This document shows, in pieces, positions 17,766 to 52,970 of a stretch of DNA of 64,000 nucleotides (the first letter of the stretch is position 1; each line of letters starts with the position of its first letter). The notes under the pieces are model-generated. The model was not told where the DNA came from and searched no databases. It saw only the letters and a list, made by a program, of their open reading frames with translations. Source of the DNA: Candidatus Omnitrophota bacterium (GTDB lineage: Bacteria > Omnitrophota > Gorgyraeia > Tantalellales > Tantalellaceae); assembly GCA_024277375.1 (NCBI GenBank), contig JAJRVD010000041.1, positions 2,323 to 66,322 of the forward strand, in the 5' to 3' direction. The position numbers were made by a program, and so were the translations under genes.

Positions 17766-17882
17766 GACCGTGTCATAATGTAGGGGCTTGATTCATCAAG
17801 CCCGTTATATCGGGTTCGATAAATCGAACCCCTACTATGTCTTGTATGCGGCCATCCGCAAAACAAATTACGACACAGCTCG
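17766..17882 (+). mobile_element. MITE-like repeat, copy 3
   Basis: GACCGTGTCATAATGTAGGGGCTTGATTCATCAAGCCCGTTATATCGGGTTCGATAAATCGAACCCCTAC...AATTACGACACAGCTCG. Confidence 0.85.
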
Positions 17883-18083
17883 AATGACGAAAGTTCCGTT
17901 TTGTAGGATCCTTTTTGAGTTTCAAGAACCCCGCATGTTGAGGGCCGAAAAATCTAAAGACGGTTACGCTGCTGTCAAAAAAGTGAATAGCCAGAGTTTT
18001 TGGTATAGCGAAGCAAGTTTCCGTCCGCTTTGCCTTCGGCAAATGCTCAAGGAGCCTTTTTGACCGTTTCACAGGCCAAAAAG

Positions 18084-18099
18084 GTTTCCACGTGGAAAC
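18084..18099. promoter_or_regulatory. parS: parS-like centromere site, a perfect 16-bp palindrome GTTTCCACGTGGAAAC
   Basis: One-symmetric-change variant of the consensus tGTTTCACGTGAAACa, about 400 bp upstream of parA. Confidence 0.6.
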
Positions 18100-18280
18100 T
18101 CTTCTTTGGGCAGTACAAAGGGCCCGGTGAATTCCTACCAGGTTTCCCTGTACGGAATCCCGCACACATCCTTTCCCGGATATAAAACAAATTCTAAGGC
18201 CGACCTCGCACGGGATAATACACAGCATCTTTCGCCACAATAAAACCATCAGATGTCATCCTGAGCGAGGCCCGATTGCA

Positions 18281-18396
18281 GACTGTGCCATAATGTAGGG
18301 GCTTGATTCATCAAGCCCGTTATATCGGGTTCGATGAATCGAACCCCTACATTATGTTGTATACGGCCATTCACGAAACGAATTACGACACAGCCC
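18281..18396 (+). mobile_element. MITE-like repeat, copy 4; supplies a spurious N-terminal extension to the parA ORF
   Basis: GACTGTGCCATAATGTAGGGGCTTGATTCATCAAGCCC...AATTACGACACAGCCC. Confidence 0.85.
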
Positions 18397-18497
18397 GCTT
18401 GTCCCGAGCGAAGCCGAGGGAAAGGGCCGAGTCGAAGGATCTAAAAACGCGAGATAAATCATTGACACAAGAACACCCGTGTGATATAGTGATTTCG

Positions 18498-20142: not shown

Positions 20143-20403
20143 AACGAAATCAAAAATAACATAGGAGCGGCCTCCCCTCGACCTCGCTCGGGACAGGCTG
20201 GCCGCGAACCAGTGGTGCATTTCTACCGGGGGCGACGGATCTCTGTTGCGGCAAAGTGCGAACCATGTTATTGCACAAAGGGGAAGTTAGAAAGGCAAAA
20301 GGAAGCAAGCTTTGAGTTGAGCGAACGAAGCGTTTCTGCTATAATGTTATAATAACAAACACCTAGAAGGCAAAACATATAGTAAACGTAGTACATAACA
20401 CAT

Positions 20404-23400
20404 ATGAACAAACGCTATATCACACACAAAATAACTATAAAGATCATATCCACTCTCGTGGTGTGCCTGTTTATGGTGAACTCGTTCGCCTGGGCAATGC
20501 CGCGTCAAATCAATATTTCCTCAACAAAGACCCTTCAAGCCGAGCTGATGACAGCAAGGATATTGAAAAACATAGACATCCAATATAGAGATACCGCCGC
20601 GGTAGAGGTAAAAACTATCCTTACAATGCTGGGAAGAGGAGATCCGATCCTGAACATAAACGCGGCATTAAGCATCGCCCATGGCGAAGCTGAAAAGATG
20701 TCAGATCCTATCTTGGAAGTAAAATTCCTTGATGACGTAGGAGCTGCCTCCGGCAGCGAACAAAAAAGCGACGAAAGAACGGTTGAATTAAGATACAAAG
20801 ACAAACCGAGGGAAGTACCGATCTGTCGAGTGATCAGGTCAAAGAATGGCAGAATATGGGTCGAGGATATCCTTGAAGAAAAACCCTTTGAGGATTTATT
20901 CGGCGAGATATTGGAACAGGTGGACGAAGAAAACAAAAGAAAAGCCGGGAAAGAGCTGGAGACAATTATCGCGATGGCGCTGGCCGCGGAACCCTATCCG
21001 AATATAAATGAGGCGTTAAATGGTTTTGCCGCCGCCAAAGAAAGGGGCAAACGGATATTAGAAATAAAGTCACCGGTTTACAGAACGGACGGAACGGTCG
21101 CGATTGAAATCGGATTTTTAGGGATGCCGCATGGAGGGCCTAAGTATAGAATTATTCTGAAGGGGTGCCGGGACAAGGAAGACCTGGCAAGAGAGCCCAG
21201 TAAGATAGAAATAAAAAGAATAAAATTTTATGAAGCTTGGCGGGAGTATAGAGTAGAGAAAAAATATCCGCGCTATGCGGATAGAAGCGGATACGGATTC
21301 ATAGGTGGTCCCAGGGGAGACATCGCGGAGGCATACAGAAAAGGGTTAATTTTCAAGATGAAGGAATCCGGATTGAGCGAAGATGAGAAGCGTTTGGTCT
21401 CAGACGCACTCATCCGCGTAACCGAAGGATCTATGCGGGACCGTAAAGAGTTTTTCTCGGAAGGAGAGATAGCCGAGATTTTGTGTTACAGCGATTTTAA
21501 CATAAAAGGTCTCATTTCAAAAATAATAAAGGAAAAGAACAAATACGAGGCGGTAGTTGACGAGAAAGGAAAAAGGCTCTTTAGCGAAAAGCAGATAAAC
21601 GCTCTTGTTCTTAGAAGATTCGCGCCATTAAGCTGGATCGAGAATCTCCGGAATGGAGGGCTCTCTAAAGCAGAGGCCGTTGAATGCGTGAAAAGATGGG
21701 CGAGGCCTAAAGAAGAATGGAAAAGGCTTGAGCCGGTCAGAGATAAGATAGTCGCGGGAAAATGGTTTAAGAGAAGAGAAGCGAACCGCATAGTTACAAG
21801 ATGGAAGGACGCGGAAGAAAAGGCCAGAGATATTAAAGATATCTGCGGGACTCTGATAAAAGACGGACTTTCAAAGTCAAGCGCTCTTGGTATTGTTTTG
21901 CAGTGGAAGAATCCGAAGAAAAAGTGGAAGAATACACTTGAACCTCTCCTTAACAGATTAGTAAAAAAGGGAATACCCCGAGGAGTAGCGTTTCAATTGG
22001 TTATTAAACACAGGGACCCGGAAAAGAAACTGGAAGACATACAGGATGACGTCGAGATGCTAAAGGGAAAGGGGCTTACAGAGTCAGCCGCGATGCGCTT
22101 TGCCATAAGGCACGCGAATGTGGAAGACAAATGGAATGAAATGATAAAAAACAGTAAAAAGATCAGGAAGCAAGGGTGGAGCCGGCGGCAGGCGATGATC
22201 ATAGCATACAAGTATAGGGACCCGGAAAACGAGGGAAGAAAAAGAACGATAGTATATGAGCAACTTATTAAAGAGGGGATACCCGAAGAAAGAGCGAAAG
22301 AATGCGTCATAAAATGGACTCACGCCGCAGAAAAGATCAAAGCGGTAGAAAAAACAACAAAGCTCATCGAAGAGAAGTTGCGGGGCAAGGTGAAAAAAGT
22401 TTTCGTGTGGGTGTTAAATAACAGCTATGGGAATCTAAAAAAGAAATTACGGTATAGATATAAGCAAACAGGTGACGAAATCGCGAGGCTACTTGAGCCT
22501 TTGCGCGAATACGAGGAAAAATACGGACAAGAAAAGGAAGACAACTTTGAGATCATAGAGAAAGGAGCGAGAAAGAAAGAACAAGGCGAACAAAAAAAGC
22601 CAAAAGCGAAGAAGAAAGAACGAAAAATAGAAACATTTACGGTAGACATGGAGGACGGGATATATGATCCAAAAGCAATTATAGGGACGGAAAAAAAGAA
22701 AAAGAGAAAGCTAGCTAAAAGTATGGCGGAAACAGAAGTGGAAGTTTTTAGTCCGGAAGAAGGGAAGAAGCACAAACAAGAAATGATCAGACATCTGACG
22801 GAGGTGGTACTTGCTGAAATCGCGGACGACTCGACGCGTATCGCGATAAGAAACAAAAAAGTTGTAGGGTTTGTGGAATTCGCTTACAGGACAGGAAAAC
22901 AAGAGGCACAAATCAAGAGAATTACAGTCTCCGAAGAAGAGCGCGATAAAGGTGTCGGGCACAGCTTGATGGATAAGGCGGTTAACGCGATTCTTGAACA
23001 CGACCCAAACAATAACAAAATACAAATAAAAGCGCCAACAGGAAAAGAAGGGTTCTATCGGGAGAAATATCTTCCGGGAAGAGAAAAAAACAAAACAACG
23101 AACGTGCCGTGGTACGTGGAATGGCATGCGCCGGCAGGGTACGCCGGCGGCGTCCGTTTTGATGTGACGGTATATAAGAAGAAACAAGAAACTTCCATAA
23201 AGAAGCAAAATGCTCCTCCTCGGAATAAAGAGGGTTTTACCTCTGTGTGTACGCTTGAAGTGGAGGGCAAAATATTTGTAGTACGTCAGCTTGTTCACGA
23301 GAAAAATAACAACGGATATAGTTATAAAGTAAGAGATATTGGGGTTTACGAGGTTAAGAGCGGGGGAAAGGAAATTTTCGCGGGCGGTATTTTCTATGTC

Positions 23401-26400
23401 ATTCCGCCAAGGGGACCAAGCACGGCTTTTACTTCACGAGACTATGGATATGGTTTTCTGAAAGAAACAATGAACGGGTACCCGTTCTACATAGAACCGG
23501 AGTACCGGAGGGGATATCATCTAGGGAAACTGTTAATGGCGATAGCGGCTCAATCTATGAAGAATATGGATGGCCTGACGGATTATTCGTATAAGACACC
23601 GACTGATGATGTTGAAAGGGTTTTGCGCAAGATTTTTCCTGAATACCCGGGAGGCGGCGAGGTTGATCTCGAGGGAGACGACAATGCAGGGGAGATATTG
23701 ACGTGGTTTGTAGAAAACGCGGGAATGGTTGTTTCCGCTGAATGGTTGATTTCCGGTAATAAAACTAAAGACAATGCAAGTACCCGTCAGATCGGCAAAG
23801 GACCAAAAGTCGATAACGTCGACCTCGAAACAAACCAGGCGACCGCAACAGATTCAGAGGGACGTGAACACACGCTTACTTTAACGGCTAAAGGAAAGGC
23901 AAAGATGCCGAAGCTAAAAGTGCTGACAGAAAGCATAGACTACGAGAACGAAGACCACAGGAAAAACATCCTTACCGTTTTAGATCTCTTAGAAAATTCC
24001 CTTTCTCGGGAACTACCGGACTTGTATACCTACCCAGAACTTATTGAAGACCTTTTCGGGTTTATCCCACCCGATGACTCAACAAACATAATAGCGTTAC
24101 ACGAAACAATGGAAGCCGAACCGATAGCGCGATTCCATGAGATCGCGCATCATTACATGGAGCGCGGGGCATGGAGCATGGAGATGAAGGGCTATATGCT
24201 AACGTTAACTATAAACGGGACAGAGCAGAAACTGGATGTCTCCCGGGCCAGAAGAAACTTGGCGGACGAAAAAGAAGATTGGATCAAGTGGACGGATGAC
24301 GAGCTTAATCAGGAGAAAAACCGGCACTATTTATTAAGAATACTCCAGAGAGCGATATTTAGAGAGAAGGATCTGGCGCTGACAAAGAAGATCAAACAAG
24401 AACAAAAGAGACGCGAAATATCGCGTGAAACGGTAAAGAGAATGTTGAGGCTCGAGCAGGAAATAATGTCGTATAAGTCGCCTGAGATCCGCGTGGCCGC
24501 TATACAGGCGTTAGGCGCGATATATTTAGCGCTTATCAAGCAGGGGCATGATGTCGATCTAGCGATTTTTGAGAAGGAAATACAAAGCACGGAAAGTATA
24601 CTTTGTAATGCTTCTATCAATGTAATGGGGGAACTTTTCTTTACTCTTGCGGGACAAGGAAAAAAAATTAACTTAACCGTAGTAGAGAAAGAATTGATTA
24701 ACGGAGATAAAGTGGATCTGCCGCGTTTGGTGGAGTGGTTACGTAAGATATATCCGGAAATTATCATAAAAGGACACTCCTTCAACATGAGGAGTATTTT
24801 TGAAGCTATGTGTGAAAGCGATCCTATATCAGCTAGTGTGATCAGACCGTTGCTGGTTGATGCTATAAAGCTCTACATTGATAATGGGAAAGAGATTGAT
24901 ATTACGTATTTGATTGACAAAATGGGAAAAAAGGATTTTGAGAACATCGAAGAGACGGTAGAAACAATAAGAGATGTATATGTTTTGTCGGCGGGCGGAG
25001 GTGAAGATATAGATATAACATGCTTAAAACAAATGGAAACAATACTCTTTGATGGGGGATTGTTTGAGAAGAGTTCGGAAGGAGAAGAAGGATATAGCGA
25101 ATATAGGATAGTTAGAGCGCTGGTGATGGAAATAGGGGACATACACAGCGTTTTTATCGAAAACGATATTAACGTAGAGATAACGAACATTGAAGAAAAT
25201 TTATCTAATAAGAACATGAAAATTCGTTATAGTGCGTTGGAAATAATGGAGGATATTCTTATCGCGCGTGCGCAAAAAAGAAGAGAGATCAATTTGGAGA
25301 AAATTAAAAAAATGAGAACAGATCCGGAAAAAGGAATAAGAGACGCGGCAAGTAAGACAATAAAAAGAGTAGAAAAAATACTGGAAAATAGCTACAAAAA
25401 AGCAACTATAAACAAAAAGCAACAAGAGGAAGTTGATGGTGGCGAACATGACGAGATAGTAAGAAGAATGGAAAAGGTGTACGGTAAAGATGTGATAAAT
25501 GACAAAACAAAAATAAGAACAATAAAGACCGAGGACGGGACGATGGTTTCCTCAATAACTCATTATCCCCGCGGGGAAGAGGATGAGGATCTTGTTCGCG
25601 AAGGCAAAGTCGAGGAAGACGCGAAAAAAATCATTACAAAAATAAAAAAAGGAAAAAACCCCAGTCTGAACAAACTAACAAAGGCTTTATTGGATGAAGC
25701 TTTTAATGTTAATCACACGGCCCTTCAAGCGCTGTTAAGGGTTTGTGCTGCTATCTTTGAAGCGGGAAAAGACGTAGATGTAAATATTTTCAAAAATGGT
25801 TTAGTTGCCAAAGTAGAAGTCACGGAAAGCATACGAGAAGAAACCGGGGACATTGTGCTTCAGCTATATGAGCTTTATTGGGAAGAGGGTCAGGAGGTCG
25901 ATACGAAGATGTTGAAGGACATTCTGACTCGAAGTAAATATAAGTATGCGCATGATGATCTGACAAATACGATCGCTAAAGGATTTAAATACTTCAACAG
26001 TGACGACCGGGAGTTCTTTGTGAAGGTCTTTGGGGGGTTGACGCAGGATGAGGATCGATGTATCAGTGAAGCCGCCGTGAACTCCCTAGAGCTCATCATT
26101 GGAGATCTTTCTGGAGAGGAGAAACAAGGGGCTATAAAAGAATTCGAAAAAAGATTGGGAAACATGACATTTATCTCTAAAGTAAAAGCGATAAAGAGTC
26201 TAGGTAAAATATATACGTCAGATTTTCTTAAAGGGAAAGAAACAGATATTATTAAAAAGCTTGGTAAATACGTGAATGACGAAAAAGCGGAAATAAGGGT
26301 AAGCGCTATCGTCTCTATAGGAGAGTATTTTATAGCCCTTGTGGAAGATGGGCAAGTCGTTGATTTGGATATATTAGAGGAAAAACTGGAGGACAAAGAT

Positions 26401-27300
26401 GCAGTAGTCAGAGGGAGGACCATAATAGAGCTTAATAAAATTTATCTTGCTATGATCGAAAAAGGCATTGTTCCTGATGTGTTTTTATTTATAAAAAAGC
26501 TAAAAGACTCTGATGAATTTGACTGGGGGGGGGAATGGGAGGATGGCCCGACCGTTACCAAGCTCGAAGATGGCGCATATTTGTACCAAAGCGAAATACA
26601 AGTAAAAACTGCCGCTAAACATGCTTTATATACAACATGTACGACTTTAGCAAGGGGAAAAATAAATTTTGATAAAAAATTATTAGAAAAAAGACTTTTT
26701 GACGATGATAAATCTTTTTGTGAGGATATTGTTTATGTTTTAGGTGAGATCTATGCCGCTCTTGCTGAAACCGACCAGGATATCGACATGGACGAATTGG
26801 AAGGATATTTGTTCCATGAAGAAGAAAGCTTCCGCAATTTTGCCGCGTACGCTTTAAGTCGGATATATGAAGTGCAATCTGAAAAAGAAAGACAGGGGAT
26901 AGTTTCCGCGGAAGACCTTGAAAAATACCGAGTATGGAAAAAGGCAAAACTACCGCTTATCGAAAAAGCGATAGATGATTATTTTCTTTCCGGCGGACCT
27001 GAGGAATATATAGAAGACCTTAAGCTTCGGGCGGATGAAGCAATATACGAAGGATTTAACACAAGAGACGATAAAGAGATGACCGCGGCTTTTGTGGGAG
27101 TAAGGAGCCATGGGATCAATATCAGTTTTAATGAGTTTGAAGAAAGGATAAAGGAAACAAAAGAGTGCAGCCAACACTTGTCTAATAAAGACGAAAAGTT
27201 TGGGCAATCTCCGAGAGATCGCTTTGAAGATCTTTTTAAAAAAGAAAAAAGACTTAAGCCTATAGAAGTGAGCGCGCGGGATTCGCGTGTTGTGGATTAA
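20404..27300 (+). CDS. Giant (2298 aa) Lys/Glu-rich protein with a signal anchor, an unknown N-domain, about 7 tandem 36-aa Trp-containing repeats, two degenerate GNAT-like folds and a C-terminal HEAT/PBS-lyase-like repeat array
   Basis: Uninterrupted 6.9-kb ORF. The signal peptide is ISTLVVCLFMVNSFAWA. The tandem repeats have the form GLSKAEAVECVKRWARPKEEWKRLEP... GNAT motif A-like sequences include RITVSEEERDKGVGHSLMDKAVNAI and YIEPEYRRGYHLGKLLMAIA. HEAT-like units include SPEIRVAAIQALGAIYLAL. All antisense ORFs in this span are short. Confidence 0.85.
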   Translation: MNKRYITHKITIKIISTLVVCLFMVNSFAWAMPRQINISSTKTLQAELMTARILKNIDIQYRDTAAVEVKTILTMLGRGDPILNINAALSIAHGEAEKMSDPILEVKFLDDVGAASGSEQKSDERTVELRYKDKPREVPICRVIRSKNGRIWVEDILEEKPFEDLFGEILEQVDEENKRKAGKELETIIAMALAAEPYPNINEALNGFAAAKERGKRILEIKSPVYRTDGTVAIEIGFLGMPHGGPKYRIILKGCRDKEDLAREPSKIEIKRIKFYEAWREYRVEKKYPRYADRSGYGFIGGPRGDIAEAYRKGLIFKMKESGLSEDEKRLVSDALIRVTEGSMRDRKEFFSEGEIAEILCYSDFNIKGLISKIIKEKNKYEAVVDEKGKRLFSEKQINALVLRRFAPLSWIENLRNGGLSKAEAVECVKRWARPKEEWKRLEPVRDKIVAGKWFKRREANRIVTRWKDAEEKARDIKDICGTLIKDGLSKSSALGIVLQWKNPKKKWKNTLEPLLNRLVKKGIPRGVAFQLVIKHRDPEKKLEDIQDDVEMLKGKGLTESAAMRFAIRHANVEDKWNEMIKNSKKIRKQGWSRRQAMIIAYKYRDPENEGRKRTIVYEQLIKEGIPEERAKECVIKWTHAAEKIKAVEKTTKLIEEKLRGKVKKVFVWVLNNSYGNLKKKLRYRYKQTGDEIARLLEPLREYEEKYGQEKEDNFEIIEKGARKKEQGEQKKPKAKKKERKIETFTVDMEDGIYDPKAIIGTEKKKKRKLAKSMAETEVEVFSPEEGKKHKQEMIRHLTEVVLAEIADDSTRIAIRNKKVVGFVEFAYRTGKQEAQIKRITVSEEERDKGVGHSLMDKAVNAILEHDPNNNKIQIKAPTGKEGFYREKYLPGREKNKTTNVPWYVEWHAPAGYAGGVRFDVTVYKKKQETSIKKQNAPPRNKEGFTSVCTLEVEGKIFVVRQLVHEKNNNGYSYKVRDIGVYEVKSGGKEIFAGGIFYVIPPRGPSTAFTSRDYGYGFLKETMNGYPFYIEPEYRRGYHLGKLLMAIAAQSMKNMDGLTDYSYKTPTDDVERVLRKIFPEYPGGGEVDLEGDDNAGEILTWFVENAGMVVSAEWLISGNKTKDNASTRQIGKGPKVDNVDLETNQATATDSEGREHTLTLTAKGKAKMPKLKVLTESIDYENEDHRKNILTVLDLLENSLSRELPDLYTYPELIEDLFGFIPPDDSTNIIALHETMEAEPIARFHEIAHHYMERGAWSMEMKGYMLTLTINGTEQKLDVSRARRNLADEKEDWIKWTDDELNQEKNRHYLLRILQRAIFREKDLALTKKIKQEQKRREISRETVKRMLRLEQEIMSYKSPEIRVAAIQALGAIYLALIKQGHDVDLAIFEKEIQSTESILCNASINVMGELFFTLAGQGKKINLTVVEKELINGDKVDLPRLVEWLRKIYPEIIIKGHSFNMRSIFEAMCESDPISASVIRPLLVDAIKLYIDNGKEIDITYLIDKMGKKDFENIEETVETIRDVYVLSAGGGEDIDITCLKQMETILFDGGLFEKSSEGEEGYSEYRIVRALVMEIGDIHSVFIENDINVEITNIEENLSNKNMKIRYSALEIMEDILIARAQKRREINLEKIKKMRTDPEKGIRDAASKTIKRVEKILENSYKKATINKKQQEEVDGGEHDEIVRRMEKVYGKDVINDKTKIRTIKTEDGTMVSSITHYPRGEEDEDLVREGKVEEDAKKIITKIKKGKNPSLNKLTKALLDEAFNVNHTALQALLRVCAAIFEAGKDVDVNIFKNGLVAKVEVTESIREETGDIVLQLYELYWEEGQEVDTKMLKDILTRSKYKYAHDDLTNTIAKGFKYFNSDDREFFVKVFGGLTQDEDRCISEAAVNSLELIIGDLSGEEKQGAIKEFEKRLGNMTFISKVKAIKSLGKIYTSDFLKGKETDIIKKLGKYVNDEKAEIRVSAIVSIGEYFIALVEDGQVVDLDILEEKLEDKDAVVRGRTIIELNKIYLAMIEKGIVPDVFLFIKKLKDSDEFDWGGEWEDGPTVTKLEDGAYLYQSEIQVKTAAKHALYTTCTTLARGKINFDKKLLEKRLFDDDKSFCEDIVYVLGEIYAALAETDQDIDMDELEGYLFHEEESFRNFAAYALSRIYEVQSEKERQGIVSAEDLEKYRVWKKAKLPLIEKAIDDYFLSGGPEEYIEDLKLRADEAIYEGFNTRDDKEMTAAFVGVRSHGINISFNEFEERIKETKECSQHLSNKDEKFGQSPRDRFEDLFKKEKRLKPIEVSARDSRVVD

Positions 27301-27306: not shown

Positions 27307-30300
27307 GTGGATACGGATGTTTTTGACAGGCATTTTTCAAAATTAGTTACGATAAAAAACAATATAGACAGTTTAGAGTGGTTAGAGGAGCTTCCGGGGA
27401 AAAAGTTTACACTTGAAAATGTTTACCACAAGTTTAAAAAACAACAGGCGGGCATTCCCGAAAAGGAAAATTCCCACTTTGTTCTTCCCGGTGAGAGGAA
27501 AAGAATAAAAACGGAATTATTAGAAGACAGAAAGATACTTTACCGGGTATTGTTCAGAATGTTAAAGGACAGGTTGAACGACAGGCAAGCAAGGGAGAAG
27601 TATCTGATTTTAATGAGAGATCTGGCCATAAGCGACAGCCTGTTAAGTTATTCTTTGGTGGCGGGCATGAGGTCCGAATATATGGAGAAACAAATAAGCG
27701 CGTTCAGGTTTCTTTACGAGGAAGACAAAAACAACTTAATTGAAGACGTTATGAAGGGAGAGAAAGAAAGCACTAAAAAGAAGCTAACAAAAACGTTAGC
27801 AGAAGGGTTTGATGAATTGTCCCGGGAAATATATGAAGAGATAGGGAAGATAAGGATCACCGTGATCAAGGGAAAAGAGAACAGGTATCGCCTGGTTCCG
27901 GCAGGTTTTTTAAGCTTGTTTAGAGGAAGAGCTGGGATATTTGATTGTTCTTTTAAATGTGAGCAGGGAGGAGAAAATCCTCTTGTGCGAGCCATTCATG
28001 AAGACAACAGTTATTATCTTGTATACAAGGGGAAAGAACTGAAAGGGTATGTAGGATTATGTTTTGGAAAGAACGAGAAAGGGGAAAGAATATTAACAGT
28101 AGACACTATTCAATCCCCCTCACTTGACGGAGAAGAGCTCTTAATGAACCTGTTTAAGGCCTTGGGCGTTGTGGCGGAAGAAAAGGGATGCATAGGTATA
28201 GCGCTTCCCGGCAACTTACGGCCGGATGCGATAGTATCTTTCAATTTTGATAACAAAAGAACCATAATGGATATGGATATATATAAGAATGCTCCGTCTG
28301 TTTATGTGGAACCGATAAACAAAAAAACGTGGGATAGTTTTTATCCGGAGTACGCGGAAGATAAACACGATTCAATGTTCTTTGGCAAGTTCAGATTAAT
28401 AACGCTTGAGATGTTGGGGCTTGCGGATGGATCGAGAAAAAGATGTGAAAGAAAAATAGACCTGGAAGACGGAATATATAACGCCGGAGAAATGATATCG
28501 GATAAGAGGATAAGCTTAAACAAGCTTTGTGTAGAGTTGACGAAGATAGAGATCGAGGCGTTTCGACCCGGAAAGAGGCGGAGCGAAAGATATATTAAAT
28601 TACTGGCTGGGACGTTTGTTGGGAATATCGAAAGAGATATTGCGCTTGTAGCCGTCAAGGACGGAGAGATCGTGGGCTTTATCCTGGCCGGAAAGAACGA
28701 TGGAGGGCTAGATCAAATAAAAGGGTTTGCGGTACGCCGGGGTGATAGGAGTAGGGGAATAGGGACGGGTCTTTTGGATAATGCGGTTGAGGCGTTTTTA
28801 GGGCACAGAGAGAGCTGTTCTTTTACTCTTCGGCCGTGGCCGGACGCTGAAAGTTTCTATACCGAAAAATATTTTCCATCACGAGTTAAAGGAAAAAGCA
28901 CAAAATCATGGTGGTTGGGAGCGGAGGCAGACCCCACAGAAAACAACACTTTAAAAGTGACCGTTTACAAAAAGGAAGAGATAGAACCGGGTTCGCTGGA
29001 CGAACAGTTGGAAAAAACCAAAGACGGAGTGTATGACGTAGAGTCGATCGTAAAAGAAAATGAAAATATTCTGCGGGAAGTGGTTGGAAGGTTATGCGTG
29101 ATAGCGGCGAGGGGCATAGGGTCGGAGAAAGTAAAAGCGGAAATATTAAGGAACGTAAACAACAAGGGTGTTTTAATGACGGTGAGAGAAAACGCAATAG
29201 TCGGGTTTATAGAATTCGGGTTCAATCCAGCGGAGCAGATGACAATAACGAATATTTTTGTTGACCAAGAGGAGTTATTTAACGAAGTGGGCTCCGAGTT
29301 AATGGATGAATTTGTAGAAGAAATTTTGGAAAAAGAAAATATCAATGACTTTAGGATTATAGCGGATCCGGACACGAGAACGTTTTATTCAAAATACATC
29401 AATAAGTGGAAACAAGAAAAAAGCAAAATCACCGCGATCAAAATCAGATTTAAATTATATAAACGGGGATGCGTAAAAATAAACGTTAACATTGAAGAAA
29501 GAATAGAGGAAGCAAGCTGGGGGGAGAGAAGAAAAAGAAAAGCGAAAAAAAGAATAAAAGAAGTTTGCCGGGAGACCCTAAAAGCTGAAAGAGAAAGGAA
29601 AGAGACAATAAATTCCGAGGAAGGAACAAAAATAAACATAATTACGGATGTGTCGCTTTTGACGGAAGAAGATCTGGAAGATAGCATAACGGAATGGGCA
29701 TATTTGATATTAAAATACAAGGAACACAAAAACGTAAACTTCATATTTAAACAGCTCTATCTGGATTATGGCGAAAAAAACATAATGTCCGACGCGTTGA
29801 TCCGGGATATTGTAAACGCCGTCAAGCCGAACGAGTTTGTAGCCGGCCTTCAAGCGCGTCTCGCGGCCCTGAACGAGGTATATACATTGGGGCTTGATAT
29901 CGAGAAGCTGTTTACGGAGAGGATAGGGGACAGCCTCTTTTTGCCCAAAAAGAGGCTATCCCCTAAAAAGTCCCCTGAAAAAAGTCCCGTAGAAATATTG
30001 ATATCTTCTTCCGAAATGTTCAAGTGGATCGAAGCAAAAGAGAAACAGCTGAAAAAAGAGCTTATAAAAGATAATCAATATCCTGTGGCTATGGAAGGAA
30101 GCACGGTGAGAGGGCAGAATTTAGCGGCGCTTTGGGATTTTCAAGGCGCGATGGATATGGCAATGGTAAAGGCGGAACTCGTTATAGCCAAGGAGAATGG
30201 TAATTTGGAAGAGACCGCCGAGAGGCTGTCGGAGCAGGTTAAGAAACTCTATGAGATCATGGACAAGAAAATAGAGGATATAGACGAAAAAACCCTTCAA

Positions 30301-30429
30301 TACATGATAAATGAACACTCCAAACTCGAAATGGCGATAGAAATGGCCCTCCCGGCCATCGGTCGAATGTCATACAAAGAACGTCAGATCCTGCACGGCT
30401 TCACTCAAGATGTCCTCCGCAACGTATAA
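27307..30429 (+). CDS. Large (1040 aa) multi-GNAT protein, paralogous over one module to the preceding giant protein
   Basis: A clear GNAT motif is present: IVGFILAGKNDGGLDQIKGFAVRRGDRSRGIGTGLLDNAV. Two more degenerate GNAT-like segments follow. The segment FYTEKYFPSRVKGKSTK...KVTVYKKEE parallels FYREKYLPGREKNKTTN...DVTVYKKKQE in the giant protein. Starts 6 nt after the upstream stop. Confidence 0.85.
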   Translation: MDTDVFDRHFSKLVTIKNNIDSLEWLEELPGKKFTLENVYHKFKKQQAGIPEKENSHFVLPGERKRIKTELLEDRKILYRVLFRMLKDRLNDRQAREKYLILMRDLAISDSLLSYSLVAGMRSEYMEKQISAFRFLYEEDKNNLIEDVMKGEKESTKKKLTKTLAEGFDELSREIYEEIGKIRITVIKGKENRYRLVPAGFLSLFRGRAGIFDCSFKCEQGGENPLVRAIHEDNSYYLVYKGKELKGYVGLCFGKNEKGERILTVDTIQSPSLDGEELLMNLFKALGVVAEEKGCIGIALPGNLRPDAIVSFNFDNKRTIMDMDIYKNAPSVYVEPINKKTWDSFYPEYAEDKHDSMFFGKFRLITLEMLGLADGSRKRCERKIDLEDGIYNAGEMISDKRISLNKLCVELTKIEIEAFRPGKRRSERYIKLLAGTFVGNIERDIALVAVKDGEIVGFILAGKNDGGLDQIKGFAVRRGDRSRGIGTGLLDNAVEAFLGHRESCSFTLRPWPDAESFYTEKYFPSRVKGKSTKSWWLGAEADPTENNTLKVTVYKKEEIEPGSLDEQLEKTKDGVYDVESIVKENENILREVVGRLCVIAARGIGSEKVKAEILRNVNNKGVLMTVRENAIVGFIEFGFNPAEQMTITNIFVDQEELFNEVGSELMDEFVEEILEKENINDFRIIADPDTRTFYSKYINKWKQEKSKITAIKIRFKLYKRGCVKINVNIEERIEEASWGERRKRKAKKRIKEVCRETLKAERERKETINSEEGTKINIITDVSLLTEEDLEDSITEWAYLILKYKEHKNVNFIFKQLYLDYGEKNIMSDALIRDIVNAVKPNEFVAGLQARLAALNEVYTLGLDIEKLFTERIGDSLFLPKKRLSPKKSPEKSPVEILISSSEMFKWIEAKEKQLKKELIKDNQYPVAMEGSTVRGQNLAALWDFQGAMDMAMVKAELVIAKENGNLEETAERLSEQVKKLYEIMDKKIEDIDEKTLQYMINEHSKLEMAIEMALPAIGRMSYKERQILHGFTQDVLRNV

Positions 30430-33652: not shown

Positions 33653-34561
33653 ATGTCAAAACTAATCAGAAAAACCCAAAAAATAGCAATAATTTCGAAC
33701 AAAGAGGTTTGTTCAGCCCACTTTGTCATGGAACTAGAAGCACCTTTTCTGGGCGAAAATTCAGCTCCGGGTCAGTTCATTAACATAAGGGTTGATGAAG
33801 GTACGACAGATCCGCTTTTGAGGATACCTCTGGGGATTCATAAAATACATGAGGGTGGGATAAGCTTGTTATACAAGGTGGTTGGTAGCGGTACACAGAT
33901 ATTGAGCAATAAAAAACAAGGGGATCAAGTAGATGTCCTAGGCCCACTTGGAAAAGGGTTTGATGTCGCACGGGTAGAGGCGTATGGCAATACGCCCCTA
34001 CAAAGTACAAAACAAGACCCCGAGGCAATTCTTGTTGCCGGCGGACATGGAATAGCGCCGCTTTACGCGTTGGCGGAAAGCCTGGCGGAGAAAAAAATTA
34101 AGACAACATTTTTGATCGGAGTCAGGTCGCGGGATCATCTGGTATGTGTGGATGAACTAAAAAGCTTAGGCGCCGAAGTTCAAATAGCGACCGAAGACGG
34201 CTCGGCTGGTTATGAGGGATACGTTACGGAATTGCTTGAGGAACTATTGAAACAAGTGATGAAAGGCGAGGTTAACGGGGACAGTCAACGCGCTCGCTTC
34301 TCGCGGCTTCGCTCGGGACAGGAGGGACAGTCCCCTGGCGAACAACAAACGATGATATATTCCTGTGGGCCACGTTTGATGTTACGAGCCCTCTCAAAAG
34401 TAGCGCTAGAAAATAACACGCCGGCGCAGGTTTCGCTCGACGCGTATATGGCTTGTGGTGTCGGGGCCTGCTTAGGGTGCGCTGTTAAAACCAAAGACGG
34501 ATATAAAATGGTCTGTAAAGACGGTCCGGTTTTCGACTCGAAGGAGATACTGTGGACTTAA
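33653..34561 (+). CDS. pyrK: Dihydroorotate dehydrogenase electron-transfer subunit, carrying an in-frame ~24-aa insertion derived from a repeat element
   Basis: FAD/NAD-binding fold plus a C-terminal 2Fe-2S cluster CGVGACLGCAV. The insertion GEVNGDSQRARFSRLRSGQEGQSPGEQQ corresponds to the GGGGACAGTCC element at 34277-34335. Confidence 0.9.
   Translation: MSKLIRKTQKIAIISNKEVCSAHFVMELEAPFLGENSAPGQFINIRVDEGTTDPLLRIPLGIHKIHEGGISLLYKVVGSGTQILSNKKQGDQVDVLGPLGKGFDVARVEAYGNTPLQSTKQDPEAILVAGGHGIAPLYALAESLAEKKIKTTFLIGVRSRDHLVCVDELKSLGAEVQIATEDGSAGYEGYVTELLEELLKQVMKGEVNGDSQRARFSRLRSGQEGQSPGEQQTMIYSCGPRLMLRALSKVALENNTPAQVSLDAYMACGVGACLGCAVKTKDGYKMVCKDGPVFDSKEILWT
34277..34335. repeat. GGGGACAGTCC-type hairpin element, copy b, lying inside the pyrK reading frame
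   Basis: GGGGACAGTCAACGCGCTCGCTTCTCGCGGCTTCGCTCGGGACAGGAGGGACAGTCCCC, homologous to the intergenic copies at 3618 and 40017. Confidence 0.6.
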
Positions 34562-35469
34562 CAGTAAAAATAAATGACCGAACTTTCAAAAACCCGGTAT
34601 GGGTCGCTTCCGGGACTTTCGGATACGGGGAAGAATTTAAAGACTTTATCGACCTTGAAAAAGTCGGCGCGATAATTACAAAAACAATTACATTGAACGC
34701 CCGGGAAGGGAATCCTCCTCCACGCATAGTTGAGACGCCCTCGGGCATGCTTAACTCTATAGGGCTTGAAAACAAAGGAATAGAGCACTTCGCGAAAAAA
34801 TATTATCCTTTCCTGGAAAAGCTTGATACCAGAATAATTGTGAGTGTAGCCGGACGAGACAAAGACGAATTTGAGAAATGTATTGAAGCGTTGGAAGAGT
34901 TCTCGCCGGACGCTATCGAAATTAATCTTTCATGCCCCAACGTTGTACATCGTCAGACAAAACATAAGTTGATAGCACAAGACCCGGAGACAACCGGAGA
35001 AATAATCGCGGCTGTCAGGAAGAAAACCAAAAGTATTCTTATCGCGAAACTTACGCCGAATGTAACAGATATCTCTGAAATAGCGCTTGCCGCGGAAGCC
35101 GGAGGGGCGAATGCTCTTTCGGTAGTGAATACATATTTGGGTATGGCGGTCGACGCTGAAGAAATGAAACCGATCTTGGGAAATATAGTCGGAGGGTTGA
35201 GTGGCCCGGCAATAAAACCGATGGCGTTAAAAGTGGTATACGATGTAAGCAAAAAAGTAAAGATCCCGGTGATCGGTATTGGAGGGATAATGACGGGACG
35301 GGATGTCGCGGAATTTATGTTGTGCGGAGCCGCGGCCGTTCAGGTTGGAACAGCGAATTTAGCGGATCCGGCGGCGCACAACAGGATACTTTCGGAGTTT
35401 GAAGAGTATTTGGATAGAAAAGGGATTAAGAAAGCAACGGATTTGGTCGGGAAGTTGAAAAAACTCTAA
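34552..35469 (+). CDS. pyrD: Dihydroorotate dehydrogenase catalytic subunit (class 1B)
   Basis: 305 aa with the motifs NPVWVASGTFGYG and NLSCPN. Confidence 0.93.
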   Translation: MDLTVKINDRTFKNPVWVASGTFGYGEEFKDFIDLEKVGAIITKTITLNAREGNPPPRIVETPSGMLNSIGLENKGIEHFAKKYYPFLEKLDTRIIVSVAGRDKDEFEKCIEALEEFSPDAIEINLSCPNVVHRQTKHKLIAQDPETTGEIIAAVRKKTKSILIAKLTPNVTDISEIALAAEAGGANALSVVNTYLGMAVDAEEMKPILGNIVGGLSGPAIKPMALKVVYDVSKKVKIPVIGIGGIMTGRDVAEFMLCGAAAVQVGTANLADPAAHNRILSEFEEYLDRKGIKKATDLVGKLKKL

Positions 35470-35536
35470 TATTGGACTTTTTTTGTGCTTAGGGGTGGCC
35501 CTTTGGGGCCAGGCCCCAAAATACAGGAGACGAAAT

Positions 35537-37602: not shown

Positions 37603-37627
37603 ATAGCGTGCATAGTTTAACAGGGTG

Positions 37628-37738
37628 TATCATGATGTAGGGGCTTGATTCATCAAGCCCGTTATATCGGGTTCGATAAATCGAACCCCTATAATATGCT
37701 GTAGGCAGCTTTTCACAATGTGACTTGTGACACAGCCT
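37628..37738 (+). mobile_element. MITE-like repeat, copy 6, lying inside the V-ATPase operon
   Basis: CATGATGTAGGGGCTTGATTCATCAAGCCCGTTATATCGGGTTCGATAAATCGAACCCCTATAATATG...GTGACACAGCC. Confidence 0.85.
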
Positions 37739-37804
37739 GTTCGCGGGGATGACAGCAGGGGAGCTCAACGGGCTTACCCGCTGAACGCTAGTAAAAGGGT
37801 ACAT

Positions 37805-38317: not shown

Positions 38318-40013
38318 CATAGTAGCGATCAGTGGGAACATGATAACCATAGAGTTTGACGGCGATGTCATACAAAACGAAGTGGGTTACGTGCTGAGTC
38401 TTGGCAAGCGCTACAAATCGGAGATCATAAAGATCACTGGGAACAAAGCTTTCGCCCAAGTGTTCGAGTATACAAAAGGGATCAAAGTAGGAGACGAAGT
38501 TGAATTCTCCGGGGAGATGCTTTCGGTTCAGTTGGGGCAGGGACTTTTAACTCAGATATACGATGGGCTTCAAAATCCGCTTCCGGAGATGGCGGAAAAA
38601 TTCGGGTTTTTCCTGCCAGTGGGAGTAGAGTTAAACGCGCTTTCTTTTGAGAAAAAATGGGATTTTACGCCGGACGCGAAGGCCGGCGATAAAGTAGTTG
38701 CCGGCAGTGTTCTCGGGAGCGTCCCCGAAGGCCTCTTTAAACACAAGATAATGGTTCCGTTCTATCTGAACGGAGAGTACACGATTGAGAAAGTGACCGA
38801 AAAAGGAACATACCCGATCGAAAAGACAATAGCCGTGATCAAAGACTCTAAAGGGAGCTTGATCGACGTAACCATGACCTTTAACTGGCCGGTGAAGATC
38901 CCCGTAGACGCGTACAAAGAAAAATTGCAGCCCAAAGACGCGCTTGTTACGCGGATAAGAATTCTGGATACACTTTTTCCCATAGCCAAGGGCGGAACGT
39001 ATTGTATCCCGGGTCCGTTCGGAGCGGGCAAAACGGTACTTCAGCAGATAACCAGTCGTTACGCGGAAGTTGATATTGTTATCATAGCCGCCTGCGGAGA
39101 AAGAGCCGGGGAGGTTGTTGAAACGTTAAAAGAATTCCCCAAGCTTATTGACCCGCGGACGGGAAAATCTTTGATGGAACGGACGATCATTATTTGCAAT
39201 ACGTCTTCCATGCCCGTCGCGGCGAGAGAAGCTTCCGTGTATACCGGAACAACGCTCGCGGAATATTACAGGCAGATGGGACTTAACGTGCTTCTCCTCG
39301 CGGATTCGACTTCACGTTGGGCGCAGGCGATGAGGGAGATCTCCGGGCGACTTGAAGAAATACCGGGAGAAGAGGCATACCCGGCGTATTTAGAATCACG
39401 TATAGCGAGTTTTTATGAAAGGGCGGGTTTAGTGGAACTGTATGACGGTGAGATAGGTAGCCTTACTATCGGCGGCACCGTAAGCCCGGCCGGCGGGAAC
39501 TTCGAGGAGCCGGTTACGCAGGGAACACTTAAAGTCGTGGGAGCGTTTCATGGCCTTTCGCGCGAAAGGTCCGACGCTAGAAGGTTTCCCTCTGTGCACC
39601 CGCTGGAAAGCTGGAGTAAGTATAAAAGTTTTATAGATGACAGCCATGTCCGCAAAGCAAAAAGCATTCTGACGAAAGGTGACGAGGTTAACCAGATGAT
39701 GAAGGTTGTGGGGGAAGAGGGTACGTCCACCGACGATTTTGTTATATATCTTAAGAGCGATTTCGTTGACAGTGTTTATCTTCAACAGAACGGGTTTGAC
39801 CCGGTGGATGCTTCGACGACAGACGAGAGGCAGAAATATGTTTTCGCGAAAGTAGTGGAAGTTCTGGACAAAGAATTTACTTTTGAGGAAAAAGAAGACG
39901 CGCGGCACTTTTTCTATAATTTGAGACACAAGTTTATCGACTGGAACTACAAAGAGTGGGATTCCGACGAATTTAAAGAGCAGGAGAAAAAAATAAACGA
40001 GGCGATCGGATGA
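38298..40013 (+). CDS. atpA: V/A-type ATP synthase catalytic subunit A
   Basis: 571 aa with the Walker A motif GPFGAGKT. Confidence 0.97.
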   Translation: MEKQKGNIVAISGNMITIEFDGDVIQNEVGYVLSLGKRYKSEIIKITGNKAFAQVFEYTKGIKVGDEVEFSGEMLSVQLGQGLLTQIYDGLQNPLPEMAEKFGFFLPVGVELNALSFEKKWDFTPDAKAGDKVVAGSVLGSVPEGLFKHKIMVPFYLNGEYTIEKVTEKGTYPIEKTIAVIKDSKGSLIDVTMTFNWPVKIPVDAYKEKLQPKDALVTRIRILDTLFPIAKGGTYCIPGPFGAGKTVLQQITSRYAEVDIVIIAACGERAGEVVETLKEFPKLIDPRTGKSLMERTIIICNTSSMPVAAREASVYTGTTLAEYYRQMGLNVLLLADSTSRWAQAMREISGRLEEIPGEEAYPAYLESRIASFYERAGLVELYDGEIGSLTIGGTVSPAGGNFEEPVTQGTLKVVGAFHGLSRERSDARRFPSVHPLESWSKYKSFIDDSHVRKAKSILTKGDEVNQMMKVVGEEGTSTDDFVIYLKSDFVDSVYLQQNGFDPVDASTTDERQKYVFAKVVEVLDKEFTFEEKEDARHFFYNLRHKFIDWNYKEWDSDEFKEQEKKINEAIG

Positions 40014-40016
40014 ATC

Positions 40017-40058
40017 GGGGACAGTCCACGCGCGGCTTCGCCGCTTGGGACAGTCCCC
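40017..40058. repeat. GGGGACAGTCC-type hairpin element, copy c, immediately after the atpA stop
   Basis: GGGGACAGTCCACGCGCGGCTTCGCCGCTTGGGACAGTCCCC. Confidence 0.6.
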
Positions 40059-40191
40059 TGAGCAACCCACTGTCGTCCCGACCGAGCGCGGCCGAGGGAC
40101 ACCGTTCCCGAGGTCATTCTGAGGGCAGAGGGTCTCAGGGTAGCGAGCGGAGGGATCTTTGTGGGAAATAATATAACGGAGGGTAGTACAA

Positions 40192-41502
40192 ATGAGAAAA
40201 GTGTGTACCAGAATATTGAGTATATCCGGAAACGTTGTAACGGTGAAAGCGAACGGGATAGCATATGAGGAACTTGCTGAAGTTTTAACCGCGCGCGGAA
40301 CGTCTTTGGCGCAGGTTATACGCCTTGACGGAGAGATCGTGCACCTGCAGGTGTTCGCGGGCTCACGCGGCATTTCAACCGGCGACGAAGTCCGGTTCCT
40401 GGGGCATCCTATGAAAGTAGGATTTTCAGAGAACATGTTGGGCCGCATATTTAACGGCAGCGGTGAGCCGAGAGATAATGGACCGGCGATAACCGAAAGC
40501 CTCATAGAGATCTCAGGGCCCGCGGTAAATCCTTCGAAGAGGGTTATCCCCTCGAACATGGTAAGGACCAACATTCCGATGATAGATGTTTTTAACTCTC
40601 TGGTAGAGTCGCAGAAGCTGCCCATATTTTCAGTTTCGGGAGAACCATATGATGAACTTTTGGCCAGGATCGCTTTGCAGGCGGAAGTTGATGTTATTAT
40701 TCTCGGCGGGATAGGTCTTAAGTTTGACCAGTATATGTATTTTAAAAACACGCTTGAAGAAGGCGGCGCTTTGAGTAGAACTATATTTTTTGTTCATACG
40801 GCGGCGGATCCTGTTGTTGAGGGGCTTATGATCCCGGATCTCGCTTTGGCCGTTGCCGAGAAATTCGCGCTGAGCGGGAAAAAAGTTCTGGCGCTGCTTA
40901 CTGATATGACCAACTTTGCCGACTCGATGAAAGAGATCGCCATAACAATGGAACAGGTGCCGTCTAACAGAGGGTATCCCGGAGACCTCTACAGTCAGCT
41001 CGCCGCCAGATACGAGAAAGCGGTTGATTTTGAAGGTGCCGGATCTATCACGGTACTTGCCGTTACGACGATGCCGGGTGACGATGTTACGCATCCGGTT
41101 CCCGATAACACCGGTTATATAACCGAGGGACAGTTTTATCTGAAGAATGGAAGAATAGAACCGTTCGGTTCGCTAAGCCGTTTAAAACAGCTGGTTAACG
41201 ATAAAACCCGAAGTGATCATAGGGCTATTATGGACGGGATGGTCCAGCTTTACGCGCAGTATAGAGAAGCGGAAGAAAAACGATCCATGGGTTTCAGGAT
41301 GAGCGAATGGGATAGAAAACTGTTAAAATATGGCGCGCTATTTGAACGCGGAATGATGGATCTTAAGGTAAATATCCCGCTCGAGGAGGCCCTGGACAAC
41401 GGGTGGAGGATCCTGGCGGATTGTTTTCATCCTGAAGAGACGAATTTCAGGACAGAGTTGGTCGAGGAATATTGGCCGGAAAAAGCAGTATCTAGTACGT
41501 AG
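40192..41502 (+). CDS. atpB: V/A-type ATP synthase subunit B
   Basis: 436 aa, a non-catalytic nucleotide-binding subunit. Confidence 0.97.
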
Positions 41503-41578: not shown

Positions 41579-41699
41579 GGCTGTGTCGTAATTCGTTTTG
41601 CGGATGGCCGTATACAATATATTGTAGGGGTTCGATTTGTCGAACCCGATATAACGGGCTTGATGAATCAAGCCCCTACATTCATTATGACACAGTCTG
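41579..41699 (-). mobile_element. MITE-like repeat, copy 7, inverted orientation and flanked by 43-bp direct repeats
   Basis: GGCTGTGTCGTAATTCGTTTTGCGGATGGCCGTATACAATATATTGTAGGGGTTCGATTTGTCGAACCC...GGGCTTGATGAATCAAGCCCCTACATTCATTATGACACAGTCTG. The direct repeats lie at 41532-41574 and 41720-41762. Confidence 0.85.
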
Positions 41700-41793
41700 C
41701 CTACGGGATAAGATATGCAGATGTAATTAGTTCGCGGCCCATCGGCGAAGCCGATACCGCTCATACAGGATACGATATATAAACGGCGCAATT

Positions 41794-44242: not shown

Positions 44243-44285
44243 ATAGTTTTGGTAGCAATGCAAGTAACCGTAGGAGCGGCCTCTG

Positions 44286-44373
44286 GCCGCATACAATATA
44301 TTGTAGGGGTTCGATTTGTCGAACCCGATATAACGGGCTTGATGAATCAAGCCCCTACATTATGACACAGTCT
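44286..44373 (-). mobile_element. MITE-like repeat, copy 8, lacking one terminal inverted repeat
   Basis: CGCATACAATATATTGTAGGGGTTCGATTTGTCGAACCCGATATAACGGGCTTGATGAATCAAGCCCCTACATTATGACACAGTCTGG. Confidence 0.8.
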
Positions 44374-44432
44374 GGTTGAAAAAACAGCGTTTTGCATGAG
44401 TCTATAATTTATAACTGGATAAGGAGGTAAAT

Positions 44433-47532: not shown

Positions 47533-47615
47533 TTTGTCGTTCGTATCTCGTATTTCGTGGGTTTGGGCTAAACATTCGTCATTGCGAGGAACGAGATTGC
47601 TTCACCTGTCATTCA

Positions 47616-47731
47616 GGTTGTGTCATAACGTAGGGGCTTGATTTATCAAGCCCGTTATATCGGGTTCGATAAATCGAACCCGATATAATATGTTGTATGC
47701 AGTCCTTCACAAGGTGATTTGCGACACAGCC
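47616..47731 (+). mobile_element. MITE-like repeat, copy 9
   Basis: GTTGTGTCATAACGTAGGGGCTTGATTTATCAAGCCCGTTATATCGGGTTCGATAAATCGAACCCGATATAATATG...GCGACACAGCC. Confidence 0.85.
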
Positions 47732-48443: not shown

Positions 48444-48580
48444 ACGTTAGTGTAATAGTAATCATTGACTTTTTATTGCTAATTGTTACAATATAGGGTG
48501 CGTCAGGACGATATAATTTATGGTAGGGGCACGGCATGCCGTGCCCCTACTTTAATATTTGATAAAATGGAAGGTGAAAA

Positions 48581-52718: not shown

Positions 52719-52810
52719 TTATATTTGCTTTGCAAAAATTGCGGAGCACCGAAACATTGATCAATCGGTAGGGGCGTATCGCGATACGCCCCTATGTAGA
52801 ACACTTGGTC

Positions 52811-52896: not shown

Positions 52897-52970
52897 ATTT
52901 GATTTAGAAACGGTAGGGGCATATAGCCATACACCCCTACAACATGTATTAATAGTTCCAAGGCGAAACA

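Follow-up and report, generated by a model that had tools for sequence, protein, structure and literature searches.

How does a short hairpin repeat that usually lies just after genes come to sit inside the reading frame of an essential enzyme? The question is raised by pyrK, the gene for the electron-transfer subunit of dihydroorotate dehydrogenase B, in a 64,000-nucleotide (nt) stretch of Candidatus Omnitrophota DNA (contig JAJRVD010000041.1; hereafter the window). A sequence-only reading of the window had proposed that a GC-rich hairpin element present twice between genes also occurs as a coding insertion in pyrK, comparable to repetitive extragenic palindromic (REP) elements. We put the probability at about 0.8 that positions 34277-34336 represent a REP-like palindromic repeat, short and non-autonomous, of which one copy became fixed in frame in pyrK and left the enzyme core untouched. 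The identity of the repeat, its in-frame insertion, its absence from orthologues, its position in a loop of low model confidence and its recurrence in other genes and lineages were demonstrated here and carry this reading.

Repeat sequences within pyrK

The element was confirmed at all three places that had been named for it, with matches above chance. Two copies are intergenic and have no strand assigned, one of 44 nt at 3618-3661 (GGGGCCAGTCCACGCGCTCGCTTTGCTCGCTTGGGACAGTCCCC) and one of 42 nt at 40017-40058 (GGGGACAGTCCACGCGCGGCTTCGCCGCTTGGGACAGTCCCC); the third, of 59 nt, lies within pyrK at 34277-34335 on the plus strand (GGGGACAGTCAACGCGCTCGCTTCTCGCGGCTTCGCTCGGGACAGGAGGGACAGTCCCC). Alignment of the copies gave a left part GGGG(A/C)CAGTC(C/A)ACGCG and a right part GGGACAGTCCCC common to all three, separated by a variable middle, and the family can be described as having arms GGGGACAGTCC-ACGCG … CTT-GGGACAGTCCCC around this middle. 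In the left arm, the copy at 3618 has C where the other two have A. The right-arm 12-mer occurs exactly at 3650, 34324 and 40047. With up to two mismatches it matched the window 13 times, against 2.86 ± 1.74 times in shuffled sequences, and none of 100 shuffles reached 13. Each arm is nearly palindromic by itself (GGGAC-A-GTCCC), and pairing of arm with arm leaves an A·A mismatch that is kept in three of three copies.

In pyrK, the 59-nt palindromic element together with one further nucleotide forms an in-frame insert of 20 codons (34277-34336, plus strand; GDSQRARFSRLRSGQEGQSP), hereafter insert 2. Compared codon by codon with L217, the locus of the closest homologue, it lies between AAC (N) and GGC (G). 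The native linker on either side matches that of L217 (VMKGEVN against RLRQNAT, and GEQQTMIY against GERRTTIY), and the extra block is exactly 20 codons long. The element had been credited with about 24 added residues; the insertion is real, but the element encodes 20, and the rest of the peptide quoted at the time is native linker. Between insert 2 and the intergenic copies, 10 of 11 positions match in one arm and 12 of 12 in the other. Loop 2, which holds the insert and runs from the G.VT motif to CGP, has 45 residues here and a median of 21 among 120 Omnitrophota PyrK proteins. The 20-residue segment is absent from all 119 others, and the closest relatives (P0002 and P0003) have a standard loop 2 of 21 residues. 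An alignment of orthologues had been named as the test that could overturn a coding insertion, and in it no unrelated taxon shared the segment. With the peptide in frame, both arms kept and no orthologue sharing it, the proposed REP-comparable insertion stands.

A second, unrelated hairpin in the same gene had escaped the sequence-only reading. This insert 1 (33974-34001, plus strand) is a 28-nt GTAG…CTAC hairpin, GTAGAGGCGTATGGCAATACGCCCCTAC, which adds about nine residues within ...VEAYGNTPLQST...; loop 1, where it lies, has 29 residues against a median of 20 in the same 120 proteins. Insert 1 was assigned to repeat family D17, its source family: it shows three mismatches to the family query, the intergenic copy at 52768-52795 (no strand assigned), with none expected by chance. 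Further GTAG-hairpin relatives lie at 52913-52940 and 48523-48550, and another in the spacer between pyrK and pyrD of L217. With a GTAG tag, a GC-rich stem-loop and multiple copies, insert 1 has the features of a GTAG-type REP. The gene thus carries two independent repeat-derived inserts from unrelated families.

Insert 2 contains a core 19-mer, CGGCTTCGCTCGGGACAGG (34304-34322, plus strand), which encodes RLRSGQ and is followed by an imperfect 9-nt tandem of GGGACAGGA and GGGACAGTC. The core recurs in the window with one mismatch at 18398-18416 (minus strand) and with two mismatches at 20179-20197 (plus strand), where 0.01 occurrences were expected; the copy at 18398 is non-coding, as the ParA domain of the open reading frame (ORF) called there starts only at residue 66. 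Intergenic repeats of L217 hold the core string with an (GGGACAGGC)n tandem (CGGCTTCGCTCGGGACAGGCGGGACAGGCGGG). Insert 2 is a composite, in which family arms are joined to the core of another repeat type, with small in-frame length changes besides. An intein or intron-like element was excluded, since the insert has only 20 residues and is without such motifs.

Alignments of the protein to PDB chains break between residues 201 and 235, where the solved chains have about five residues, and also across roughly residues 114-124. In an AlphaFold2 model of PyrK built on 115 sequences (mean predicted local distance difference test score (pLDDT), 89.4; predicted template modelling score (pTM), 0.89), the 10-residue blocks with the lowest pLDDT are those covering the two inserts, and the core is otherwise above 90. 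Blocks of residues 211-230 in insert 2 score about 48-51, with residues 210-212 and 214-223 below 50, and the region of insert 1 (residues 111-120) scores 68. The structure model suggested by the earlier reading as a check thus shows the insert as a low-confidence segment on a confident PyrK fold. Both inserts immediately precede β-strands of the NAD-binding domain (residues 124-130 and 233-239). In Rossmann-like folds, this side, before the strands, would lie opposite the nucleotide site, and from this position both loops would be predicted to face away from PyrD and from the FAD and NAD sites.

The host gene itself looks functional, with invariant residues kept and its operon intact. Its 302-residue product (33653-34561, plus strand) matches PF10418 (6.8e-17) and PF00175 (2.3e-9), and combines FNR-like FAD/NAD-binding domains with a C-terminal 2Fe-2S region of four cysteines, beside pyrD, as expected of PyrK. 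PDB sequence matches were 5ksw_B, 1ep3_B and 4ylf_A (PyrK chains of L. lactis dihydroorotate dehydrogenase B and NfnI small subunits), and Foldseek returned L. lactis PyrK 5ksw_B as the best PDB match of the model (TMt 0.85). All family-invariant residues are kept, including the four cluster cysteines; C268, C273, C276 and C288 are invariant or nearly so in the family and are present here. The 3′ end of pyrK is overlapped by 10 nt by pyrD (PF01180, 5.7e-80), in an operon that runs from a pyrR-like phosphoribosyltransferase gene through pyrB, pyrC, pyrK, pyrD and pyrF to pyrE and is followed by V/A-type ATPase genes. An identical PyrK protein is recorded on a 79.7-kb NCBI contig (Candidatus Omnitrophota bacterium), and the next-best homologues all come from Omnitrophota, at 55% identity by BLASTP and about 60% in MAFFT alignments.

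The two intergenic copies each follow a gene, as had been noted, with some correction of detail. The copy at 3618 lies 15 nt past the 3′ end of tRNA-Val (3677-3754), which is itself on the minus strand, and is bordered by A5 and T6 runs; metagenome loci L125, L142 and L156 hold almost identical copies bordered by the same A/T runs. Its earlier description as a bidirectional terminator agrees with this flanked hairpin shape but not with a consensus terminator scan, which called no terminator at 3618 or 40017. The copy at 40017 begins 3 nt after a stop codon, as stated, but the gene that ends there encodes the A subunit of a V/A-type ATPase and is not atpA; this copy has no T run. Judged from hairpin shape, the intergenic copies could plausibly act as terminators. 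Only the copy at 40017 folds as RNA clearly better than shuffled sequences (−29.9 kcal/mol, z −5.5), z being −1.4 for the copy at 3618 and −1.0 for the pyrK copy, which is no better than shuffled. The element matches no Rfam family, either at the gathering threshold across the whole window or at E ≤ 10 in positions 39950-40200. The V/A-ATPase A and B subunit genes are separated by 178 nt of GC-rich repeat modules, which behind the copy at 40017 occupy 40059-40191; L121, a syntenic relative, has no such spacer, and there the two genes overlap.

Recurrence in other genes and lineages

Scanning of metagenomes for CAGTCNACGCG…GGGACAGTCCCC brought up 82 copies of the family on 90 stretches, from contigs of 35-69% G+C, with about 45 of the copies on one 3.25-Mb contig. 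Conservation extends throughout their arms, mismatch and bulge positions included, and their middle is variable and sometimes not self-complementary. Most are bordered by GAAAAAn…nTTTTTC, like the copy at 3618, and have the shape of a two-way terminator. Four of the 82 lie in long open frames and two in real genes, namely a radical-SAM gene (PF04055) in L190 and queH (QueH, PF02677) in L199; these two are each 36 nt, or 12 codons, and read in frame as GDSPRA(L/S)LGTVP. The element ranges from 36 to 61 nt in length, about 2-5% of the sampled copies are within genes, and coding insertion of this family is recurrent yet rare.

The window holds a possible third coding repeat insertion, a 42-nt near-perfect hairpin at 29924-29965 (TAGGGGACAGCCTCTTTTTGCCCAAAAAGAGGCTATCCCCTA) that is in frame (IGDSLFLPKKRLSP) in a 1040-residue GNAT-domain ORF (27307-30429). 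A homologue search with the C-terminal third of this ORF, which includes the hairpin, gave no match; the hairpin may represent a further coding insertion. All four coding copies seen with GGGGACAG arms (34277, 29923, L190 and L199) have the same orientation and frame, in which GGG GAC AG of the left arm is read as G-D-S, and all six frames of the element are open. The shared frame could be due to chance, target preference or selection on the peptide.

The loops of PyrK are also expanded in other lineages. The statement that canonical PyrK proteins carry no insertion at this position holds for the median length, but 17 of 115 Omnitrophota PyrKs have expansions of their own in loop 1 or loop 2. 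Where close relatives of the expanded proteins were sampled (83-94% identical), they are usually without the expansion, and the expansions are scattered at the tips of the family. P0004 and P0017 are 83% identical by BLASTP and 88% identical outside the two loops, with a clean 24-nt difference; P0034 and P0048 are 94% identical outside the loops. The insert of P0004 is a 24-nt, non-palindromic fragment of the RLRSGQ core. A repeat-derived, RLRSGQ-like core occurs in four PyrKs, among them P0004 (L121), P0115 (L122) and P0090 (L123), always in loop 2 and in the same orientation and frame. Other repeats are found in these loops as well: a GTCATTGCGAG…CTCGCAATGAC hairpin lies in frame in loop 1 of P0115 (L122:1823-1948) and in loop 2 of P0065 (L216:661-780), and loop 1 of P0117 has a VIPAKAGI-type peptide. 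At least four unrelated repeat families occur in the same PyrK loops.

In one further pair of loci (L218:985-1180 and L219:2501-2665), the DNA flanking the loop in pyrK is nearly identical whereas loop 2 is wholly different, one of the two genes having 7-nt (GCGTCAA) and 11-nt (GAACGAACAAC) tandem repeats there. Loop 2 is hypervariable through slippage as well as hairpin insertion. Because expansions recur and close relatives mostly lack them, the two PyrK loops are general tolerance sites, struck repeatedly and recently via several mechanisms. The loop-length comparison across 120 PyrKs and the scatter of expansions at the tips led us to reject the reading of the extra segment as an ancestral loop.

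Origin of the insert

In the reading that we favour, the usual habitat of the repeat would be intergenic, just after genes, where it would form a hairpin that is terminator-shaped if A and T runs flank it. A HUH (Y1) transposase resembling REP-associated tyrosine transposases (RAYTs) or their terminal inverted repeat (TIR)-associated counterparts (TIRYTs) would spread copies in trans via single-stranded hairpins, and selection would remove coding insertions save in-frame ones in permissive loops. In pyrK, a copy would have entered the NAD-binding domain, in the loop that joins its last helix to its last strand, and would have survived because it provides 20 stop-free codons and encodes a hydrophilic, disordered peptide in a loop of variable length. 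The peptide that it adds is probably neutral. A hairpin of the GTAG family would have done likewise in the linker that leads into the domain's first strand.

A candidate mobiliser emerged from a scan of a genome collection with GGGGNCAGTCN{15,45}GGGACAGTCCCC, a generic pattern that finds two GGGGACAGTCCCC-type motifs within 45 nt. At least 120 loci matched, from Planctomycetota, Bacillota, Bacteroidota, Actinomycetota, Acidobacteriota, Nitrospirota and Omnitrophota; the window's own genome is not among the matches listed. All-against-all clustering of the ORFs of the 120 listed loci returned a single recurrent gene family, a Y1 transposase, at four loci (L001, L028, L076 and L091) that had been chosen only for their paired motifs. 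The three Y1 products that were scanned match PF01797; within NCBIfam they scored highest with NF047646 ('REP-associated tyrosine transposase'), reaching 71-80 bits, which is at or just below its cut-off of 80 bits; the truncated gene of L028 shows 80-94% identity to the L001 protein (tblastn). In L076, a Eubacterium metagenome-assembled genome (MAG), and in L091, the 13-mer GGGGAC[A/T]GTCCCC stands on both sides of the Y1 gene (3414-4118 and 3118-3723, respectively, each on the minus strand of its locus) in opposite orientations, with the A form upstream and the T form downstream once the gene is turned to plus. In L028, a Planctomycetia MAG, a hairpin lies 140 nt upstream of the Y1 gene. Di Nocera et al. 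(2013; PMC3733652) described 'TIRtrons', with a GGGGWSAS motif in the repeats that flank TIRYT genes, and this motif is present as GGGGACAG in the arms of the copy at 40017 and of the pyrK copy. Taken as a whole, these data give spread of the copies by a RAYT/TIRYT-like Y1 enzyme a chance that we would set somewhat below even. Within the window, the ORF at 17773-18249 (minus strand), which is flanked by repeats in the manner of a REPtron, was considered and rejected: it is not a Y1 transposase and has no Pfam match.

Several points weigh against the origin that we favour. A tblastn search of the window and of the 80 metagenome loci with the exact family (L125-L204) detected no Y1 homologue; because no Y1 gene stands beside the exact family, the transposase link rests on the shared 13-mer in other phyla. 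No direct target-site duplication or conserved target is evident at the three window copies. The pyrK copy has 15 nt more than the intergenic ones, a degraded hairpin and a core common to other repeats; its history therefore includes steps beyond one clean transposition. That the insert is translated and the protein active is a prediction.

Some of these points would suit an origin by repair or recombination, in which the repeat came into pyrK from an ectopic copy, by gene conversion or by template switching, with slippage afterwards, and the loop is a hypervariable indel hotspot. The imperfect 9-nt tandem and the shared core of insert 2, the 24-nt core fragment of P0004 with no palindrome, the replacement of the loop by 7-nt and 11-nt tandems between the near-identical flanks of L218 and L219, and the window's having neither a transposase nor a target duplication all point in this direction. 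However, both complete arms are present in pyrK and are arranged as in the intergenic copies, two unrelated genes in other genomes hold the whole element in frame, and the arm motif is tied to RAYT-like genes elsewhere. We regard the repair route as unlikely, while giving it real weight. A lower weight falls to retention of the insert for a function, as an Arg/Ser/Gly/Gln-rich interaction loop or as an mRNA hairpin that tunes pyrK-pyrD translation or stability. Such a role would account for the nearly intact arms of the coding copy, for RLRSGQ-like cores in the same loop, orientation and frame of four PyrK lineages, and for the G-D-S reading at the left arm of every coding copy seen. It is made improbable by a coding-copy hairpin that is no better than shuffled (z −1.0), by a loop of low model confidence whose sequence differs among lineages, by the at least four unrelated repeat families found in the same loops, and by the many PyrKs, the majority, that do without the insert, close relatives of insert-bearers included.

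Some Omnitrophota PyrKs have a longer loop at this place with an RLRSGQ-like motif, as would be expected if the loop were old, native and variable and resembled the elements by chance, or if the intergenic copies derived from pyrK. We hold this to be very improbable: the arm 12-mer is exact in three of three copies, far above chance; the 82 family copies are on unrelated metagenome contigs and mostly intergenic; expanded loops sit at family tips, with nearest relatives lacking them; and at 50-60% protein identity a neutral ancestral loop would lose such DNA identity. An assembly artefact or a pyrK pseudogene deserves just as little credence. The contig is metagenome-assembled and repeats can misassemble, but pyrK is in frame on both sides of the insert, its conserved residues are all kept, neither the stop/start overlap with pyrD nor the operon is disrupted, the identical protein is found on the 79.7-kb NCBI contig, and independent assemblies have the same family in frame in other genes.

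A repeat insertion fixed in frame in pyrK leads to a wider and more tentative proposal. Hairpins with GGGGAC[A/T]GTCCCC arms might form a cross-phylum superfamily mobilised by RAYT/TIRYT enzymes and, together with other hairpin families, might repeatedly seed new surface loops in Omnitrophota housekeeping enzymes, with particular loops hit again and possibly a preferred orientation and frame. We consider this doubtful at present. If true, protein loops in Omnitrophota would regularly evolve from selfish hairpins, and this locus would be no one-off.

Other repeats of the window and known systems

The commonest repeat of the window, with at least 13 copies in both orientations, is a double hairpin, GTAGGGGCTTGATTCATCAAGCCC-GTTATAT-CGGGTTCGATAAATCGAACCCCTAC, set between longer conserved flanks; it resembles REP dimers or bacterial interspersed mosaic elements (BIMEs). 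Copies lie at 3508-3599, 6381-6520, 17759-17898, 18274-18413, 37616-37755 and 41603-41704, and further ones at 44282-44383, 47609-47731, 54873-54974, 56293-56432 and 63559-63617. An inverted repeat pair (35458-35520 and 62050-62112; 63 nt, 83% complementary) contains GGGGCCAGGCCCC, and its first arm, between pyrD and pyrF, gives the pyrF ORF a false N-terminal extension. Similarly, the first 65 codons of a ParA-like ORF (18303-18497) are repeat sequence and AAA_31 begins at residue 66; the true start of this ORF is probably downstream of the repeat. Repeats inflate ORF calls in this genome. A 6S RNA (RF00013, 51 bits, above the gathering score) lies at 61730-61885, with small hairpins nearby at 61886-61907 and 62049-62069, and a giant ORF of 2298 residues (20404-27300) has no Pfam match in its first 699 residues.

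The pyrK locus offers a clean, checkable example of selfish hairpin DNA that is now part of an essential enzyme, in a phylum known nearly only from metagenomes. It adds to its interest that one gene has two inserts, that the same loops are colonised repeatedly across lineages and that coding copies tend towards the G-D-S frame. For annotation, low-complexity peptides like GDSP…GTVP, RLRSGQ and VIPAKAGI in Omnitrophota proteins can be repeat-derived and are then not evidence of a domain or of homology. The two PyrK loops provide a natural test, on a small scale, of where an FNR-like fold can accommodate 10-30 additional residues, and the link between arm motif and RAYT-like transposases offers a testable route by which the element could move.

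Among known systems, the intragenic REPs of the GTAG/CGTC type (Di Nocera, De Gregorio & Rocco 2013, PMC3733652) share with the pyrK inserts a short, GC-rich stem-loop that mostly lies just after genes and in a minority of cases wholly within genes that encode known proteins. That survey reported REPs inside genes in several species, where they contribute about 20-30 residues and sometimes occur twice in an ORF, and found intragenic GTAG repeats to be most numerous in O. terrae, which belongs to the PVC group of phyla; Omnitrophota were outside its coverage. Insert 1, a GTAG…CTAC hairpin, fits this description directly. The family of insert 2 is dispersed and palindromic as well, but it has no GTAG or CGTC tag (its flanks read AAAAA/ATC/AAC-GGGG… and …CCCC-T) and its window copies measure 42-59 nt, against the 20-40 bp given for REPs. 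Its full range of 36-61 nt is at or above the usual REP size, and its arms, conserved but imperfect through an A·A mismatch, enclose a variable middle that is not always self-complementary.

The element was further compared with Rickettsia palindromic elements (RPEs) and MITEs (miniature transposable elements with inverted repeats). RPEs are likewise palindromic and lie in frame in housekeeping genes, where the peptide is thought to be compatible with the protein's fold and function (PMC10969869, PMC3733652). They are about 150 bp long (PMC10969869) and are found only in Rickettsia, nearly half of those of R. conorii lying in genes, whereas the present family has 36-61 nt and occurs in many metagenomes. 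At 59 nt, in an Omnitrophota host and with no sequence relationship found or expected, the pyrK element is not an RPE. MITEs are also non-autonomous dispersed repeats with inverted termini and are occasionally fused in frame to ORFs (PMC10969869). They have 70-300 bp, terminal inverted repeats of 15-30 bp and a target-site duplication; the element, at 42-59 nt, is too short, shows no direct duplication at its three window copies and has no known parent insertion sequence, and we do not class it as a MITE. A literature search found the motif string only in unrelated primers and nothing relevant on palindromic repeats in Omnitrophota.

The TIR repeats of TIRYT/RAYT-like genes (PMC3733652) come nearer, since the arm start GGGGACAG conforms to GGGGWSAS. 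The difference from TIRtrons is that neither the window nor the surroundings of the exact family's copies show a Y1 gene. Overall, insert 2 fits best with the TIRYT-associated GGGGWSAS repeats. The kind of event described here is already known from Rickettsia and from REPs, and it is well supported that pyrK presents a new case of it in a poorly studied phylum rather than a new kind of system.

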